Origin: Escherichia phage K1E
Length of the DNA stretch: 45,251 nt
Sequence record: NC_007637.1
Reading direction: 5' to 3' (one strand)
This document shows, one piece after another, positions 715 to 45,251 of the stretch. How positions within the stretch are numbered: the stretch's first letter is position 1; every line of letters begins with the position of its first letter. Under the pieces are notes generated by a model. That model did no database searches. It was not told where the DNA came from and was given only the letters and a program-made list of their open reading frames with translations. A program made the position numbers and the translations under genes.

Positions 715-743
715 TTGACACAGGCAATCAACAGATATACATT
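715..743 (+). promoter_or_regulatory. Candidate host sigma-70 early promoter
   Basis: Perfect -35 TTGACA at 715..720, then a 16-17 nt spacer and ATACAT/TACATT as -10; followed by an inverted repeat ctgagacgg...ctgtctcag (about 752..780). Upstream of the first early ORFs. Confidence 0.3.
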
Positions 744-1242: not shown

Positions 1243-1381
1243 AGACCAACTAAAGCAACTCTTAGTCGACGCGTGGTTTGCTGGTCATGAAACCTCGCAA
1301 TACACGCCTAACTCTTACGGTGATGCTAACAGATATGCACGCTCTACATTAAAGGAGGTTAAAGAGGATGTATCAGCATGA
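1226..1381 (+). CDS. Hypothetical early protein (51 aa)
   Basis: ATG 1226 (aggagttaagtaATG), stop TGA 1379..1381; overlaps both neighbours; found by manual translation. Confidence 0.3.
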   Translation: MIQLTEDQLKQLLVDAWFAGHETSQYTPNSYGDANRYARSTLKEVKEDVSA

Positions 1382-1592
1382 GGTTTTCTTCGAATCAGCT
1401 AGTGAAGCTATCCGCTTCCATGATGATATGATGCAAGCTGGCGTAGGTGTTGATGTGTATCACTATTTGATAGATTACGACACTGAATATCACCGAGTTA
1501 CCTTAGTATCTGAGTATGACAACCAAGTCATTACTGAGTATCTAGGTAGTGAAGATTATGATTACGATGAAGTAATCACAACAAATCTCTAA
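1368..1592 (+). CDS. Hypothetical acidic early protein (74 aa)
   Basis: Track ORF with ATG start and AAGGAGG upstream (1352..1358). Confidence 0.45.
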   Translation: MYQHEVFFESASEAIRFHDDMMQAGVGVDVYHYLIDYDTEYHRVTLVSEYDNQVITEYLGSEDYDYDEVITTNL

Positions 1593-1654
1593 ATTAACTA
1601 TTGACAGCCACGGCATACAAGGCTACATTAAGCATCAAGACGGCGACGTCTTTA

Positions 1655-2030: not shown

Positions 2031-2195
2031 ATGACTAACGCACAACGTAAACGCTATGATGCATTGCAAGAGAAACTTGCTGTTGCTTATGCCGCTTGGC
2101 AAGCTAACACAGACAAGAGCAAACACGATAAACTTTATAGTAAAGTGGTTGCAATTAATGCTAAAATAGATAAACTTGTGAATAGTATCTTATAA
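2031..2195 (+). CDS. Hypothetical early protein (54 aa)
   Basis: ATG 2031 with AAAGGTGAACT upstream; stop TAA 2193..2195; found by manual translation. Confidence 0.45.
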   Translation: MTNAQRKRYDALQEKLAVAYAAWQANTDKSKHDKLYSKVVAINAKIDKLVNSIL

Positions 2196-2206
2196 GATAG
2201 TTGCTG

Positions 2207-2272
2207 GCACTAGCCAGCCTATCAAGGCACAAGCCACGCTCTTTTAACAATATGGGTAGTCGCTTCTTAGTC
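2207..2272 (+). promoter_or_regulatory. Early-region repeated element, copy 4 (core GCTCTTTTAACAAT, 2237..2250)
   Basis: Hairpin gctggc-acta-gccagc, arm cctatcaaggcac, the core, then an imperfect partner arm gtctggatagg. Confidence 0.35.
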
Positions 2273-2345
2273 TGGATAGGTTAAACCTAGGGTATTCTTT
2301 TGAGTGCCCTATAATGTAACCTAACTAACTAATGAGGATTAAATC

Positions 2346-2672
2346 ATGGAACGCAATGCTAACGCTTACTACAATCTTCTGGCTGCAACTGTTGAAGCAT
2401 TCAACGAGCGCATTCAGTACGATGAGATCCGCGAAGGTGATGATTACTCTGATGCACTACATGAGGTTGTAGACAGCAATGTTCCAGTTTATTACAGCGA
2501 AATCTTTACTGTGATGGCTGCTGATGGCATTGATATTGAATTTGAGGATGCAGGTTTGATTCCTGATACGAAGGATGTAACCAAGATTCTACAAGCTCGC
2601 ATCTATGAGTCTCTTTATAATGATGTACCAAATGATAGTGATGTAGTTTGGTATGAAGACGAGGAAGAATAA
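2346..2672 (+). CDS. Ocr-like acidic protein (candidate DNA-mimic anti-restriction protein, 108 aa)
   Basis: Very acidic protein. The stretch IQYDEIREGDDYSDALHEVVDSNVPVYYSEIFTVMAADGIDIEFEDAGLIPDTKDVTKILQARIYESL closely parallels T7 gp0.3 (Ocr) as I remember it; needs alignment to confirm. Confidence 0.6.
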   Translation: MERNANAYYNLLAATVEAFNERIQYDEIREGDDYSDALHEVVDSNVPVYYSEIFTVMAADGIDIEFEDAGLIPDTKDVTKILQARIYESLYNDVPNDSDVVWYEDEEE

Positions 2673-2674
2673 AG

Positions 2675-2788
2675 ATGGAAAGGCAATATAACTTCATCTT
2701 CTCAGACGGTGTAACCCTGAAATGTTCCTTACGATTTGCGCAGATTCGTGAGGAAGTGCTAGGTACTACATACAAACTATTTAGCTGA
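2675..2788 (+). CDS. Hypothetical small protein (37 aa)
   Basis: ATG 2675 just after the upstream stop; weak evidence; its 3' end overlaps a promoter-like sequence. Confidence 0.2.
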   Translation: MERQYNFIFSDGVTLKCSLRFAQIREEVLGTTYKLFS

Positions 2789-2801
2789 CACTATAAGAGA
2801 A
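2779..2801 (+). promoter_or_regulatory. Weak SP6-type phage promoter-like sequence
   Basis: ATTTAGCTGACACTATAAGAG: two mismatches to the consensus, including A instead of G at +1. Confidence 0.35.
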
Positions 2802-2864: not shown

Positions 2865-3092
2865 ATGGATTTAGATAGCATCATTATGGCATTTGCTCTT
2901 ATTGGCTTAAGCTGGTGCTCCTATCACCTTTACCGTGAGTTCTTATTTGATAAAGCTAAACGCAAACTAAGAAAGGAAGGCGGTAACTACCTCTGTGTAA
3001 GAGGCGGTTTAGTCGAATATATTGCACCTAACGGCACGGAATGCGCCATTAACAAAGATGCATTTATAGAAACGTGGCATTACATCAAGTAA
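2865..3092 (+). CDS. Hypothetical small membrane protein (75 aa)
   Basis: ATG 2865 with TAGGAG upstream; hydrophobic N-terminal segment IIMAFALIGLSWCSY. Confidence 0.45.
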   Translation: MDLDSIIMAFALIGLSWCSYHLYREFLFDKAKRKLRKEGGNYLCVRGGLVEYIAPNGTECAINKDAFIETWHYIK

Positions 3093-4103: not shown

Positions 4104-6731
4104 ATGCAAGACCTACACGCTATTCAACTTCAACTTGAAGAAGAAATGTTTAACGGCGGCATCCGTCGCTTTGAAGCGGACCAACAACGCCAGATTGCAT
4201 CCGGTAATGAATCAGACACGGCATGGAATCGCCGCTTATTGTCCGAACTAATCGCACCTATGGCGGAAGGTATTCAGGCTTACAAGGAAGAATACGAAGG
4301 CAAGAGAGGTCGTGCACCACGTGCATTAGCTTTCATTAACTGCGTAGGAAACGAAGTGGCAGCATATATCACCATGAAAATCGTTATGGATATGCTGAAT
4401 ACAGACGTTACCTTACAAGCTATCGCTATGAATGTAGCAGACCGCATCGAGGACCAAGTACGTTTTAGCAAGCTGGAAGGTCACGCAGCTAAGTACTTTG
4501 AGAAAGTGAAGAAGTCGCTTAAGGCTAGCAAGACTAAATCTTATCGTCATGCGCACAACGTAGCGGTAGTAGCTGAGAAATCTGTTGCTGACCGTGACGC
4601 GGATTTCTCCCGTTGGGAGGCATGGCCTAAAGACACCTTGCTGCAAATCGGTATGACCTTGCTCGAAATATTGGAGAATAGTGTATTCTTCAATGGTCAA
4701 CCTGTCTTCCTTCGTACCTTGCGCACTAACGGCGGAAAGCATGGTGTTTACTATTTACAGACCAGTGAACATGTTGGCGAGTGGATAACTGCATTTAAGG
4801 AACATGTAGCGCAGCTCAGCCCTGCCTATGCACCTTGCGTTATACCTCCCCGCCCTTGGGTATCACCTTTTAACGGTGGGTTTCATACTGAGAAAGTAGC
4901 AAGCCGTATTCGTCTGGTAAAAGGCAATCGTGAGCACGTCCGCAAGCTGACCAAAAAGCAAATGCCAGCCGTTTATAAGGCTGTTAACGCTTTGCAGGCA
5001 ACTAAGTGGCAGGTTAATAAAGAGGTTTTACAGGTTGTGGAGGACGTTATACGTCTAGACCTCGGCTATGGTGTACCTTCCTTTAAACCACTCATCGACC
5101 GTGAGAACAAGCCAGCTAATCCGGTGCCGTTAGAGTTCCAGCACCTGCGAGGCCGTGAACTGAAAGAAATGTTAACACCGGAACAATGGCAAGCCTTCAT
5201 CAACTGGAAAGGTGAATGCACCAAGCTGTATACCGCTGAGACTAAGCGCGGCAGCAAATCGGCGGCGACCGTCCGCATGGTAGGGCAGGCCCGTAAATAC
5301 AGCCAATTTGACGCAATATACTTCGTGTATGCTCTGGACAGCCGCAGCCGCGTCTACGCGCAATCTAGCACGCTCTCTCCGCAATCAAACGACTTAGGCA
5401 AGGCATTGCTCCGTTTTACCGAAGGGCAGCGTCTTGATAGCGCTGAGGCGCTTAAGTGGTTTTTGGTGAACGGGGCTAATAACTGGGGTTGGGATAAGAA
5501 AACTTTTGACGTGCGCACCGCTAACGTGCTGGATAGTGAATTTCAAGACATGTGCCGCGACATTGCAGCGGATCCGCTGACCTTCACTCAATGGGTAAAT
5601 GCCGACTCCCCTTACGGCTTCCTTGCATGGTGCTTTGAATATGCGCGTTATCTGGATGCACTGGATGAAGGCACGCAAGACCAATTCATGACGCACCTCC
5701 CAGTCCATCAAGATGGTAGTTGTTCTGGTATCCAGCACTACAGTGCTATGCTACGCGATGCAGTAGGTGCGAAAGCAGTAAACCTTAAGCCCTCTGACTC
5801 TCCTCAAGATATTTATGGTGCCGTTGCGCAGGTAGTAATTCAGAAGAATTATGCATACATGAATGCAGAGGATGCGGAAACCTTCACTTCTGGCAGCGTG
5901 ACTTTAACAGGTGCGGAACTGCGTAGTATGGCTAGTGCGTGGGATATGATAGGAATCACTCGCGGCCTGACCAAAAAGCCCGTAATGACACTACCTTATG
6001 GCAGCACACGTCTAACCTGCCGTGAGTCAGTGATTGATTATATCGTTGATTTAGAAGAAAAAGAGGCCCAACGGGCTATTGCGGAAGGGCGTACCGCCAA
6101 TCCTGTACACCCTTTTGATAATGACCGTAAAGACAGCCTGACACCTAGCGCAGCTTATAACTATATGACAGCTTTAATCTGGCCTTCTATCTCGGAAGTG
6201 GTTAAAGCCCCTATAGTGGCAATGAAAATGATTCGTCAGCTTGCACGTTTCGCAGCTAAAAGAAACGAAGGCTTAGAATATCCCTTACCAACTGGCTTCA
6301 TCTTGCAACAAAAGATAATGGCTACCGATATGCTCCGCGTATCCACTTGCTTGATGGGTGAAATCAAGATGAGTCTCCAGATTGAAACAGATGTAGTTGA
6401 TGAAACGGCAATGATGGGTGCGGCTGCTCCTAACTTCGTCCATGGTCACGATGCTAGCCACCTGATTCTGACTGTATGTGACCTAGTGGATAAAGGTATT
6501 ACATCCGTTGCAGTCATCCATGATTCTTTCGGTACTCATGCAGGACGTACCGCAGACCTGCGGGATAGCTTAAGGGAAGAAATGGTTAAGATGTATCAAA
6601 ACCATAATGCCCTGCAAAACCTGCTAGATGTGCACGAAGAGCGTTGGTTAGTAGACACCGGAATCCAAGTACCAGAGCAAGGGGAGTTTGACCTTAACGA
6701 AATCTTAGTTTCAGACTATTGTTTCGCATAA
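4104..6731 (+). CDS. Single-subunit DNA-dependent RNA polymerase (T7/SP6 type, 875 aa)
   Basis: AGGAG RBS; motifs [19 protein letters not shown] and C-terminal ...DYCFA parallel T7 RNAP ([19 protein letters not shown], ...FAFA). Confidence 0.95.
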
Positions 6732-20945: not shown

Positions 20946-21143
20946 ATGTCTTTTGATTCTATGAAGGCAACTCGTGCGGTTGAGGTAGCAGAGGCTATCT
21001 TCGAAACTTTATCCTGTGGTATGGAAGTACCATATACTTTACTGGCTGATGCAGAAGAGCTTGGTCTTTCTATAGAGGCCATCCAAGAGAAGGTTGAGGA
21101 ACTCTATGGTACAGACGAAGAAGAAACCGACGATTTCATTTGA
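20946..21143 (+). CDS. Hypothetical acidic protein (65 aa)
   Basis: Track ORF trimmed to ATG 20946 with AAAGGAGG upstream. Confidence 0.45.
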   Translation: MSFDSMKATRAVEVAEAIFETLSCGMEVPYTLLADAEELGLSIEAIQEKVEELYGTDEEETDDFI

Positions 21144-37390: not shown

Positions 37391-38556
37391 TGGCTAAGGC
37401 AAGAGAATCACAAGCGGAGGCTCTTGCCAGATGGGAGATGCTACAGGAGTTACAGCAGACCTTTCCTTACACAGCGGAAGGTTTGCTTCTCTTTGCAGAC
37501 ACAGTTATTCATAACTTAATTGCAGGCAACCCTCATCTGATTCGTATGCAGGCTGATATCTTGAAGTTCCTATTCTACGGACACAAGTATCGCCTCATCG
37601 AAGCGCCTCGTGGTATCGCTAAGACAACACTATCAGCAATCTATACAGTATTCCGTATCATTCATGAACCGCATAAGCGTATCATGGTTGTATCCCAAAA
37701 CGCCAAGCGAGCAGAGGAAATCGCAGGTTGGGTAGTTAAAATCTTCCGTGGCCTAGACTTTCTTGAGTTTATGCTACCGGACATCTACGCAGGGGACCGT
37801 GCCTCAGTTAAGGCATTTGAGATTCATTACACCCTACGTGGCAGTGACAAGTCGCCTTCTGTGTCTTGTTACTCAATCGAAGCAGGTATGCAGGGTGCGC
37901 GTGCAGATATCATCCTAGCAGATGACGTTGAGTCAATGCAGAATGCTCGTACAGCGGCAGGACGTGCCTTGCTTGAGGAACTGACCAAGGAGTTTGAATC
38001 TATTAACCAGTTTGGTGATATTATCTACCTTGGTACTCCTCAGAACGTAAACTCTATCTACAATAACCTACCTGCTCGTGGTTACTCTGTTCGTATCTGG
38101 ACTGCACGTTATCCCTCAGTGGAGCAGGAGCAATGCTATGGTGACTTCCTTGCACCTATGATTGTGCAGGATATGAAGGACAACCCAGCACTTCGCTCAG
38201 GGTATGGCTTGGATGGCAATAGTGGTGCCCCTTGTGCACCTGAAATGTATGATGATGATGTGCTGATTGAGAAGGAAATCTCGCAGGGTGCGGCTAAGTT
38301 CCAGCTTCAGTTCATGCTTAACACTCGCATGATGGATGCTGACCGCTATCCGCTACGCCTGAACAACCTCATCTTCACTTCATTCGGTACAGAGGAAGTC
38401 CCTGTGATGCCTACGTGGAGCAATGATTCCATCAATATTATTGGCGATGCACCGAAGTATGGCAATAAGCCTACAGACTTCATGTATCGACCTGTGGCTC
38501 GCCCGTATGAATGGGGCGCTGTCACTCGTAAGATTATGTATATTGACCCTGCTGGT
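37390..38556 (+). CDS. Terminase large subunit, exon 1 (389 codons)
   Basis: ATG 37390 with AAGGAGG upstream; Walker A-like PRGIAKTT and Walker B ADIILADDVE; similarity to T7 gp19 stops at ...IDPAG, where an insertion begins. Confidence 0.85.
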
Positions 38557-39311
38557 AAACACCTCTGCCAGCGTAAAACCCTCTTAATTCGGTGGAACTC
38601 TCACTGAGACAATACCGAGCGAAGCCTGTTGCAATAACAGGAACGTGTAGAGACTAACTGTAAGGCCAAGCGGTCTGAAACAGAGGGAGGCGCAAGCCTA
38701 AGATATAGTCCGACCTACTAGGTGACTAGTAGAAGTTAAAGTAGCGAATTAACGTAACAATTGAAGGGAGTTAAATATGACAGAGCATAAAGTTTATCAT
38801 ATTCGTGTTGTTGGTGAAACTGATGTAATGCAAGGTTATATTGGTGTAACCTCCGATATTAAGAAGCGTATGAGAGAGCACAAGTGTGCAGGCCGTCTTT
38901 GTGATGGCCGCGAGTACGTTATCTTATTCACTGGTAGCAAAGAAGAGTGTTATGCACTAGAAGAGAAGCTACGCCCACATGACAACATGGGTTGGAATAA
39001 GGGTAAAGGTGGTTATCGCAAAGCAGGTAACATCGAGAAAGGTGAACGCATAAGTATTGCCACTGAAATCAAGAAAGGACAGCACTTGTCTGTTGCCACT
39101 GAGTTCAAGAAAGGCATGACACCTTACAACAAAGGTACTGGCAAAGATTACATATTCACTTCTCCAGATGGTGAAGAGTTTCTTGTAACTTGCATTACTG
39201 ACTTCTGTAAAGAGCACAACCTAACACCTCAGAATATGCGTAAGGTGGCACGTGGTTTACGTAAACACCACAAGGGTTGGCTCGCACGTCACGTTCAAAC
39301 CGGGAGGTAAG
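38557..39311 (+). mobile_element. Group I intron (candidate, self-splicing) carrying a homing endonuclease gene
   Basis: Conserved elements in canonical order: P AATTCGGTGGAA (38586..38597), Q AATACCGAGC (38611..38620), R GTAGAGACTAACTG (38647..38660), S AAGATATAGTCC (38700..38711). P1 pairing of exon GCTGGT (38551..38556) with GCCAGC (38567..38572). The 3' boundary is uncertain: G39311 or G39302. Confidence 0.75.
38777..39310 (+). CDS. GIY-YIG homing endonuclease (I-TevI-like, 177 aa) encoded within the intron
   Basis: AAGGGAG RBS; N-terminal KVYHIRVV...GYIGVTSDIKKRMREH (GIY-YIG with conserved Arg/Glu); central repeated GERISIATEIKKG / HLSVATEFKKG units; basic C-terminal DNA-binding-like region. 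Confidence 0.8.
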   Translation: MTEHKVYHIRVVGETDVMQGYIGVTSDIKKRMREHKCAGRLCDGREYVILFTGSKEECYALEEKLRPHDNMGWNKGKGGYRKAGNIEKGERISIATEIKKGQHLSVATEFKKGMTPYNKGTGKDYIFTSPDGEEFLVTCITDFCKEHNLTPQNMRKVARGLRKHHKGWLARHVQTGR

Positions 39312-44963: not shown

Positions 44964-45251
44964 TCTCGCCCTCGCCCTCGCCGGATTTTCCCCATATGGG
45001 GCCGCGCTGCGGTTGGCTTGGGGATTGGGCTAGGCTGGGCCGTCTTCAACCTGCTGCCGCAGGAAGCTCGATGGGTTGGCTGAGGGTTGCCGAGGGCTGC
45101 GCTTAGTGGTACACAAGTAGAACGCCTAGGAAGCGCTAGGGCACGCCTTAGTGTTGGACAAGGTGATTGCCTTAGTGCAACCGTTTAGGGCTTACACAGG
45201 CCGTTTTAGGGCAATTCCTGAGTGTTTGACAGGGTGTGAGGGTGTGGGCTA
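44964..45251. repeat. Right direct terminal repeat (288 bp)
   Basis: Copy of 1..288 running to the last base of the window; matched by eye over the visible stretches. Confidence 0.85.

Follow-up and report, generated by a model that had tools for sequence, protein, structure and literature searches.

An Ocr-family DNA-mimic gene of the K1F type in the early region of an SP6-like phage genome

The ocr gene and its place in the early region

The stretch of DNA that we analyzed (referred to here as the window) is a whole linear phage genome of 45,251 bp, bounded by 288-bp direct terminal repeats that are 100% identical to each other (1-288 and 44964-45251). Because the genome is complete and linear, with terminal repeats, position 1 is its true left end. 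At the nucleotide level, the window is 94-96% identical to the Vectrevirus phages K1E, vB_EcoP_B, C, D and R, mutPK1A2 and ULINTec7, and these K1E/SP6-like relatives belong to the Autographiviridae, subfamily Molineuxvirinae. The gene under study, ocr, is found at 5% of the genome length, 2.3 kb from the left terminal repeat. The features of the locus are listed in Table 1.

Table 1. Features in and around the ocr locus of the window, from left to right
Feature	Coordinates	Strand	Basis and remarks
Sigma-70-like promoter, TTGACA-17-TACATT	715..743	+	Consensus scan, 10/12 positions, pattern match only
Six small ORFs 5' of ocr	923-1060, 1057-1242, 1226-1381, 1368-1592, 1719-1931, 2031-2195	+	ORF list
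Second sigma-70-like promoter, TTGACA-17-TACATT	1601..1629	+	Consensus scan, 10/12; 717 nt 5' of ocr
Degenerate boxA-like motif, GCTCTTTTAACAA	2238..2250	+	One extra T compared with canonical; 108 nt 5' of ocr
Leader hairpin	2258..2340	+	Directly 5' of ocr; apical helix 2288-2297 / 2302-2311
Shine-Dalgarno sequence, GAGGA	2334..2338	+	7 nt 5' of the ocr ATG; in the 3' arm of the leader hairpin
ocr gene, K1F-type allele; Ocr-family DNA-mimic protein, 108 aa	2346..2672, including stop	+	ORF list, translation; start ATG at 2346, stop TAA at 2670-2672
37-aa ORF	2675..2788	+	ORF list; start 2 nt past the ocr stop codon
First SP6-type phage RNA polymerase promoter, ATTTAGCTGACACTATAAGAG	2779..2799	+	Leftmost of eight consensus matches
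SP6-type single-subunit RNA polymerase gene	4104-6731		ORF list

The ocr product is very acidic, as the sequence-only reading of this DNA had described it: 14 Asp and 14 Glu (28 residues) stand against 2 Lys and 4 Arg (6 residues), with a net charge of -22 and a computed pI of about 4.05. When the 74 + strand ORFs in the window that start with ATG and have 50 aa or more are ranked by acidity, it comes second. By charge density, the most acidic ORF of the genome is located at 20946-21143 (+ strand) and encodes 65 aa with a net charge of -15 and without a Pfam match.

One of the small ORFs that precede ocr, 1368-1592 (+ strand), encodes another early protein that is very acidic (74 aa, net charge -15) and belongs to PHROG 6403, a family of unknown function. 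Its homologues form 46 clusters, nearly all of 74 aa, with SP6 gp4 as a distant relative, and the complete contigs that carry them are of Vectrevirus size (about 42-46 kb). The AlphaFold2 model of this protein (pLDDT 90) has a ferredoxin-like beta-alpha-beta-beta-alpha-beta fold that resembles PII/GlnK, with a TM-score of about 0.65. We considered the protein as a candidate second DNA mimic and rejected it, given a predicted fold that is ferredoxin-like rather than Ocr-like and no specific match. Its profile matches to designer PPR proteins in the PDB contain no individually significant stretch and were set aside as artefacts of repeat summation.

The SP6 promoter consensus has eight matches in the window, compared with 0 expected, and the leftmost of these lies 3' of ocr. 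Thus, ocr falls within the segment that only host RNA polymerase should be able to transcribe. The two sigma-70-like promoters in Table 1 have identical hexamers, and the one at 715..743 is likely, judging by its sequence, to be a major early promoter; the number of sigma-70-like sites that a consensus scan finds in the early region is not above the count in shuffled sequence. A perfect TATAAT at 2310-2315 was considered as a dedicated sigma-70 promoter for ocr and rejected, given that no acceptable -35 hexamer lies 16-18 nt away, TGn is absent and the scan made no call there. This TATAAT lies within the 3' arm of the conserved leader hairpin described below, and aligns with the matching part of the hairpin that precedes gene 0.3 in T7.

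Six + strand ORFs are found between the first sigma-70-like promoters and ocr, each of which matches a PHROG family of unknown function. The observation made from the letters alone, that ocr is not the first gene as it is in T7, is therefore correct: gene 0.3 of T7 is the first gene, at 0.9 kb, whereas ocr in the window comes seventh among the ORFs, at 2.3 kb from the left end. This position is the normal layout of the SP6 group, known since 2004. The gene order in SP6 is genes 1-4, gene 5 (annotated as ocr-like), the 38-aa gene 53, genes 6 and 7, and the RNA polymerase gene; the Ocr homologue is gene 5 in SP6 and gene 6 in LL11, and the locus and order are the same in K1E. In all three phages, as in the window, Ocr occupies a slot after small early ORFs and is followed by a 37-38-aa ORF, homologues of gp6 and gp7, and the RNA polymerase, and the gene is preceded by a boxA and hairpin leader. 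The 37-aa ORF of the window matches PHROG 11746 (E 6e-30); its product matches that of K1E at 100% identity and resembles SP6 gp53, and the ORF is kept in SP6 (gene 53), K1E and LL11.

Elsewhere in the genome, a 746-bp insertion (38557-39302) splits the terminase large-subunit gene. By comparison with the uninterrupted 633-aa TerL of ULINTec7, exon 1 ends in ...IDPAG at 38556 and exon 2 starts with GGKNGDETG at 39303. The insertion holds a group I intron (RF00028, 38525-38732; 63.6 bits versus a gathering score of 50, E 6e-14, full model) and a 177-aa ORF (38777-39310) that has weak GIY-YIG and NUMOD-like matches and is called a homing endonuclease in relatives. Of 120 related records, only 9 reach a query coverage of at least 80%, including six Escherichia phage records at 94-99% identity, while K1E and most other Vectrevirus records are without it. 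The GenBank relatives are annotated with two terminase fragments, not with an intron.

Family membership, predicted fold and charge pattern

The sequence-only reading had noted that a long stretch of the product matches T7 gp0.3, and the alignments bear this out. In a phmmer search of PDB sequences, T7 Ocr (1s7z, 2y7c) is matched with E values of 2-4e-28, residues 7-102 aligning to residues 7-102; at E 4e-28, the pairwise alignment runs over these 96 residues without a gap. The identity to T7 gp0.3 (NC_001604) is about 50-52%. The product also matches the Pfam family PF08684, ‘DNA mimic ocr’ (E 4e-32, 111.1 bits versus a cut-off of 25, profile positions 5-97 of 101), and PHROG 2568, ‘ocr-like anti-restriction’ (E 7e-51); among NCBIfam models, none matches it.

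Homologues number 432 at E <= 1e-3 in clusters at 90% identity, and an exhaustive HMMER scan of 1.84 billion representatives yielded 43 clusters at E <= 1e-3 and 13 at E <= 1e-10. Ocr-like stretches found in giant proteins (1,047-7,924 aa) in the representative search were rejected as artefacts of repeats or composition; the three such matches that were scanned (1,047-3,480 aa) are surface proteins with MBG or Ig-like repeats. Near-identical genes in GenBank relatives already bear the name Ocr, for example ‘protein Ocr (Gp0.3)’ in ULINTec7, whose product is 97% identical at the amino acid level, and ‘DNA mimic ocr’ in vB_EcoP_B, C, D and R. ‘DNA mimic Ocr’ is also listed among the genes of the nearest relatives of the window by Baig et al. 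2017 (PMC5582158), and Vectrevirus isolates are described as encoding Ocr homologues in a 2026 paper (PMC13005862). The product is clearly a member of the Ocr family.

An AlphaFold2 model of the single chain, built from a 39-sequence alignment (pLDDT 89.9), has four helices at residues 7-25, 35-45, 50-57 and 78-96. When this model was compared to the PDB using Foldseek, the only matches at E below 1e-3 were eight chains of T7 Ocr, with TM-scores of 0.72-0.77, an rmsd of about 2 Å and about 56% identity. These chains come from the free protein and from its complexes with BrxX/PglX, RNA polymerase, AriA and a type I methyltransferase. The predicted structure thus has the four-helix fold of Ocr, in keeping with the proposal that had been made from the sequence, and with T7 gp0.3 (PF08684, PDB 1S7Z) it shares both the family and the fold, at a TM-score of about 0.75.

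The acidic positions are retained far better than the rest of the protein. Within residues 1-99 of T7 Ocr, 21 of the 23 acidic positions are also acidic in the window product, compared with an identity of only 46% at the non-acidic positions (Fisher p 8.5e-5), and the acidic residues of loop 1 (5/5) and loop 2 (7/7) are all kept. Dryden's group reported a minimum of about 16 acidic residues in each monomer for an effective antirestriction protein, and found those in the loops to be the most important (PMC4872106). With 28 acidic residues, the product exceeds this minimum and so has the acidic surface expected of an Ocr protein. F54 and L82 (T7 numbering) are also conserved; in T7 Ocr, these two residues form the hydrophobic dimer interface and are part of the surface recognised by AriA of the PARIS system (PMC10802264). 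The profile score, the predicted fold, the acidic pattern, the interface residues and the position in the early region all agree with the assignment to the Ocr family that the sequence-only reading had put forward.

The T7 protein has 117 aa compared to 108 in the window protein, whose acidic tail is shorter; the 9-residue difference stems from an alignment gap of about 9 residues close to where the last helix ends. The region past residue 99 differs between the two proteins. T7 Ocr cut to 99 residues was reported to behave as wild type (PMC3439906). Among the positions that contact E. coli BrxX, the window product carries the substitutions H48V, S59A and S69A. The tail residues E107, E111 and E116 of T7 Ocr contact E. 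coli BrxX as well (PMC11317158), and have no counterpart in the window product because it ends at residue 108. Given these substitutions and the missing tail contacts, the BREX spectrum of the window protein could differ from that of T7 Ocr.

The ocr leader and the exchange of ocr alleles

The early intergenic regions of the window contain a repeated element (repeat family D2) whose core is an rrn-type boxA. The sequence TGCTCTTTAACAA is present as an exact copy at 893-905 and as copies with a single mismatch at 1662 and 1974, always on the + strand and nowhere else in the window, with 0.12 occurrences expected. Correspondingly, the gamma-proteobacterial boxA consensus GYTCTTTAANA (PMC5725501) is matched at 894, 1663 and 1975. 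The copy before ocr is degenerate. It carries a 1-nt T insertion that breaks the consensus. In the comparison of 14 SP6-type ocr leaders, this insertion occurs in the window genome only, and the other 13 share the canonical CTCTTTAACAA, 101-109 nt 5' of the ATG. Either a genuine mutation or a sequencing error in a homopolymer could account for the extra T. The four boxA-like motifs (893-905, 1662-1674, 1974-1986 and 2238-2250) are all on the + strand and lie in the gaps before the ORFs at 923, 1719 and 2031 and before ocr, and several of them adjoin strong hairpins; for example, the segment 1932-2030 folds at -36 kcal/mol (z -5.9). The boxA copies may recruit Nus factors.

The RNA from 2196 to 2345 folds at -55 kcal/mol (z = -6.25), and its minimum free energy structure pairs the Shine-Dalgarno segment, where AATGAGGATTAA is nearly invariant across 14 SP6-type leaders. 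When the leader hairpin is laid over these 14 leaders, 84% of the cells are paired, compared with 32-53% in slid-partner controls. Five apical pairs are changed on both sides, for example with GGGUA/UGCCC in the window and GGAGA/UCUCC in K1E. The covariation score is 0.125 versus 0.075 for shuffled data and is reached by 0 of 500 shuffles, in a test that uses a structure derived from one of the aligned leaders and a small sample of 14 related SP6-type sequences. Almost no consensus structure was obtained from a MAFFT/RNAalifold alignment that included the T7 and K1F leaders; since the alignment is unreliable at this distance, the covariation test is limited to the SP6-type leaders.

The arrangement resembles that of T7, in which gene 0.3 is an early gene transcribed by the host polymerase, with a boxA-like motif and a hairpin before its start codon, namely GCTCTTTAACAATCTGG and, after it, a hairpin whose apical sequence (AAGGGUAUC...GGUGCCCUU) is similar to that in the window. 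The RNase III site R0.3 of T7 is located between promoter A3 and gene 0.3 (PMC3276506). By analogy, the leader hairpin of the window is a candidate RNase III processing site like R0.3. In T7, cleavage at R0.3 presumably takes place at nt 890.

An identity matrix of Ocr proteins separates two classes, T7-type and K1F-type, with 46-51% identity between classes. T7 Ocr is 77% identical to that of SP6 and 65% to that of K1E, and the K1E and LL11 proteins are 93% identical to each other. The window protein is of the K1F type: it is 83% identical to K1F gp0.3 and 97% to the ULINTec7 protein, compared with 46-50% to T7, SP6 and K1E. Both classes are present in both subfamilies. In IMG/VR, the K1F-type allele is found in 10 SP6-type and 28 T7-type polymerase contexts, plus two further loci without a polymerase match, and its products have either 108-119 aa or, with a C-terminal extension, 166-173 aa.

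Outside the genus, the closest relatives of the window protein are K1F gp0.3 and the Ocr-like proteins of Kayfunavirus and Przondovirus, at 83% over residues 1-108; the N-terminus MERNANAYY is the same in K1F gp0.3 and in the window. K1F gp0.3 has 169 aa and differs by a C-terminal extension of roughly 60 aa that the window protein does not have, and T7-type genomes also carry short K1F-type forms (110-119 aa). K1F, a member of the Studiervirinae, further differs in that its ocr is the first gene, with flanks unrelated to those of the window. In many K1F-type proteins, including K1F gp0.3 (positions 1114-1623 in the K1F sequence) and those of Kayfunavirus-like loci, the extra C-terminal module measures about 55-65 aa (...EYWVVDxxTG...); it has no Pfam match and is missing from the window protein.

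Within the SP6 group, SP6 gp5 and the K1E and LL11 proteins are T7-type alleles, 46-49% identical to the window protein, whereas the flanks of the window gene are 90-100% identical to K1E. Along the alignment with K1E, the leader (about 2200-2345) is 85-98% identical and the region from about 2660 to 2860 is 92-100% identical, but across the ocr ORF identity falls to 40-70%; the 5' break falls at about the start codon and the 3' break shortly before the stop. On these alignments, the ocr ORF is a replaced cassette relative to K1E. The nucleotide similarity to K1F, in turn, begins at the ATG and stops at 2668, with 74% identity. Among the T7-like phages in the collection, none is above about 79% identity to the window ocr, which indicates that transfer of the allele was not recent.

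The ORFs at 2031-2195 and 2865-3092 are likewise replaced relative to K1E, by sequence that is unrelated or strongly diverged, and between these two the intergenic leaders and the 37-aa ORF stay 90-100% identical. From such comparisons, the early region is read as a patchwork in which cassettes the size of a gene meet at conserved intergenic elements, which is typical phage mosaicism. A broader proposal is that the ocr slot of SP6-like and T7-like phages is a hot-swap anti-defence cassette, whose classes would be kept by defence-driven selection and would not be functionally equivalent. Two classes that are about 50% identical would then circulate across two subfamilies and be swapped essentially at the ORF boundaries, with the boxA/hairpin leader on the 5' side and the 37-aa ORF and phage promoter on the 3' side as conserved linkers. 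We regard this proposal as speculative and rather doubtful; if it is true, the classes should differ, for example in their BREX or type I spectra or in their visibility to Ocr-sensing PARIS.

Proposed function and alternatives

Taken together, the gene very probably encodes a functional Ocr-family DNA mimic that is expressed early by the host polymerase and blocks restriction, from a boxA/hairpin leader that is probably cut by RNase III. Host RNA polymerase would transcribe ocr among the first genes to enter the cell, and the hairpin that covers the ribosome-binding site would probably be cut by RNase III to yield a translatable ocr message, by analogy with boxA and R0.3 of T7. The product, an acidic four-helix polypeptide, is expected to dimerize via its hydrophobic face, and the carboxylates of the dimer would mimic the phosphate backbone of bent B-form DNA. 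The unmodified phage genome would thereby be spared cleavage or exclusion. The strong homology and the conserved charge pattern point to DNA mimicry as the mechanism, which would block type I restriction-modification (R-M) and probably BREX as well. Binding to type I R-M or BREX enzymes, as well as protection in vivo, are predictions from the sequence; our literature search found no published test of any K1F-type Ocr protein. For SP6 gp5, an anti-restriction role was put forward by Scholl et al. 2004, according to the citation given in PMC4837284.

Sites for type I enzymes are present at near-expected numbers in the genome (EcoKI, 4 versus 4.7 expected; EcoBI, 6 versus 5.8), and GATC (29 versus about 171) and CCWGG (6 versus about 62) are strongly under-represented, where all expectations are based on mononucleotide composition only. 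These frequencies fit with a genome that is actively protected from type I systems instead of avoiding their sites. The region to the left of ocr has no EcoKI, EcoBI, EcoAI or EcoR124I site; we do not take this site-free leading DNA as evidence because, with about 5 sites in 45 kb, chance alone would be expected to leave a 2.3-kb segment empty. Two other sites were counted in the window: CAGCAG, the EcoP15I site, is about 4-fold over-represented (69 versus 17), and GGTAAG, the BREX site of E. coli HS, is found 40 times compared with 22 expected.

Type I R-M is also defeated early by ArdA, an acidic DNA mimic of conjugative plasmids and transposons (PMC2731889), and by the SAM lyase gp0.3 of T3, whose gene has the same genome position as T7 0.3 (PMC3276506). 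Unlike T7 gp0.3, neither of the two is homologous to the window Ocr, and neither was matched in any search of this analysis.

A first alternative is that the protein has the Ocr fold but serves mainly in a role other than type I anti-restriction. It might chiefly inhibit host RNA polymerase (host shut-off) or block BREX or a different DNA-binding defence, and its inhibition of type I enzymes would then be weak or lost. T7 Ocr also binds E. coli RNA polymerase (PMC7064336; PDB 6r9b is among the fold matches) and BrxX/PglX, complexes of which are likewise among the fold matches; in addition, the window protein shares only about 50% identity with T7 Ocr, from which it departs at H48, S59, S69 and in the tail. 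We nevertheless consider this alternative improbable. The acidic pattern is fully kept in the loops reported to be most important for EcoKI binding (PMC4872106), and Ocr mimicry is described as non-sequence-specific and tolerant of many substitutions (PMC4872106, PMC3439906). Moreover, in T7 Ocr such roles add up and are not mutually exclusive.

Still less credible is the possibility that ocr is a decaying or neutral remnant, i.e. an Ocr-derived acidic peptide without selection for function. The length of 108 aa versus 117 in T7 Ocr, with about 9 residues of the last helix missing, and the insertion in the upstream boxA copy could be read in this way, but the ORF is uninterrupted and preceded by a good Shine-Dalgarno sequence, the AlphaFold2 model is confident, and the charge positions are conserved far above the background identity. 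The short K1F-type form also recurs in many SP6-type and T7-type genomes (108-119 aa), which argues against decay in the window. Finally, a chance reading frame that resembles Ocr in composition, suggested by the fact that acidic low-complexity tails can inflate scores and that some weak matches to giant repeat proteins were artefacts, is refuted by the 96 residues aligned without a gap at E about 1e-28, by the PF08684 match and by the predicted fold that matches T7 Ocr; the synteny conserved in SP6, K1E and LL11 also speaks against it.

The preferred reading, a functional DNA mimic that is made early and blocks restriction, thus rests on an Ocr assignment that is correct but ordinary, as it is already known and sister genomes carry the gene under that name. 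In a therapeutic setting, K1-capsule phages that have an Ocr gene would be predicted to resist type I R-M and BREX, but possibly to be sensitive to Ocr-sensing systems of the PARIS type. In addition, Vectrevirus genomes that have near-identical early regions and two very different ocr alleles constitute a natural isogenic-like pair, which would be useful for comparing which defences the Ocr variants block or trigger.
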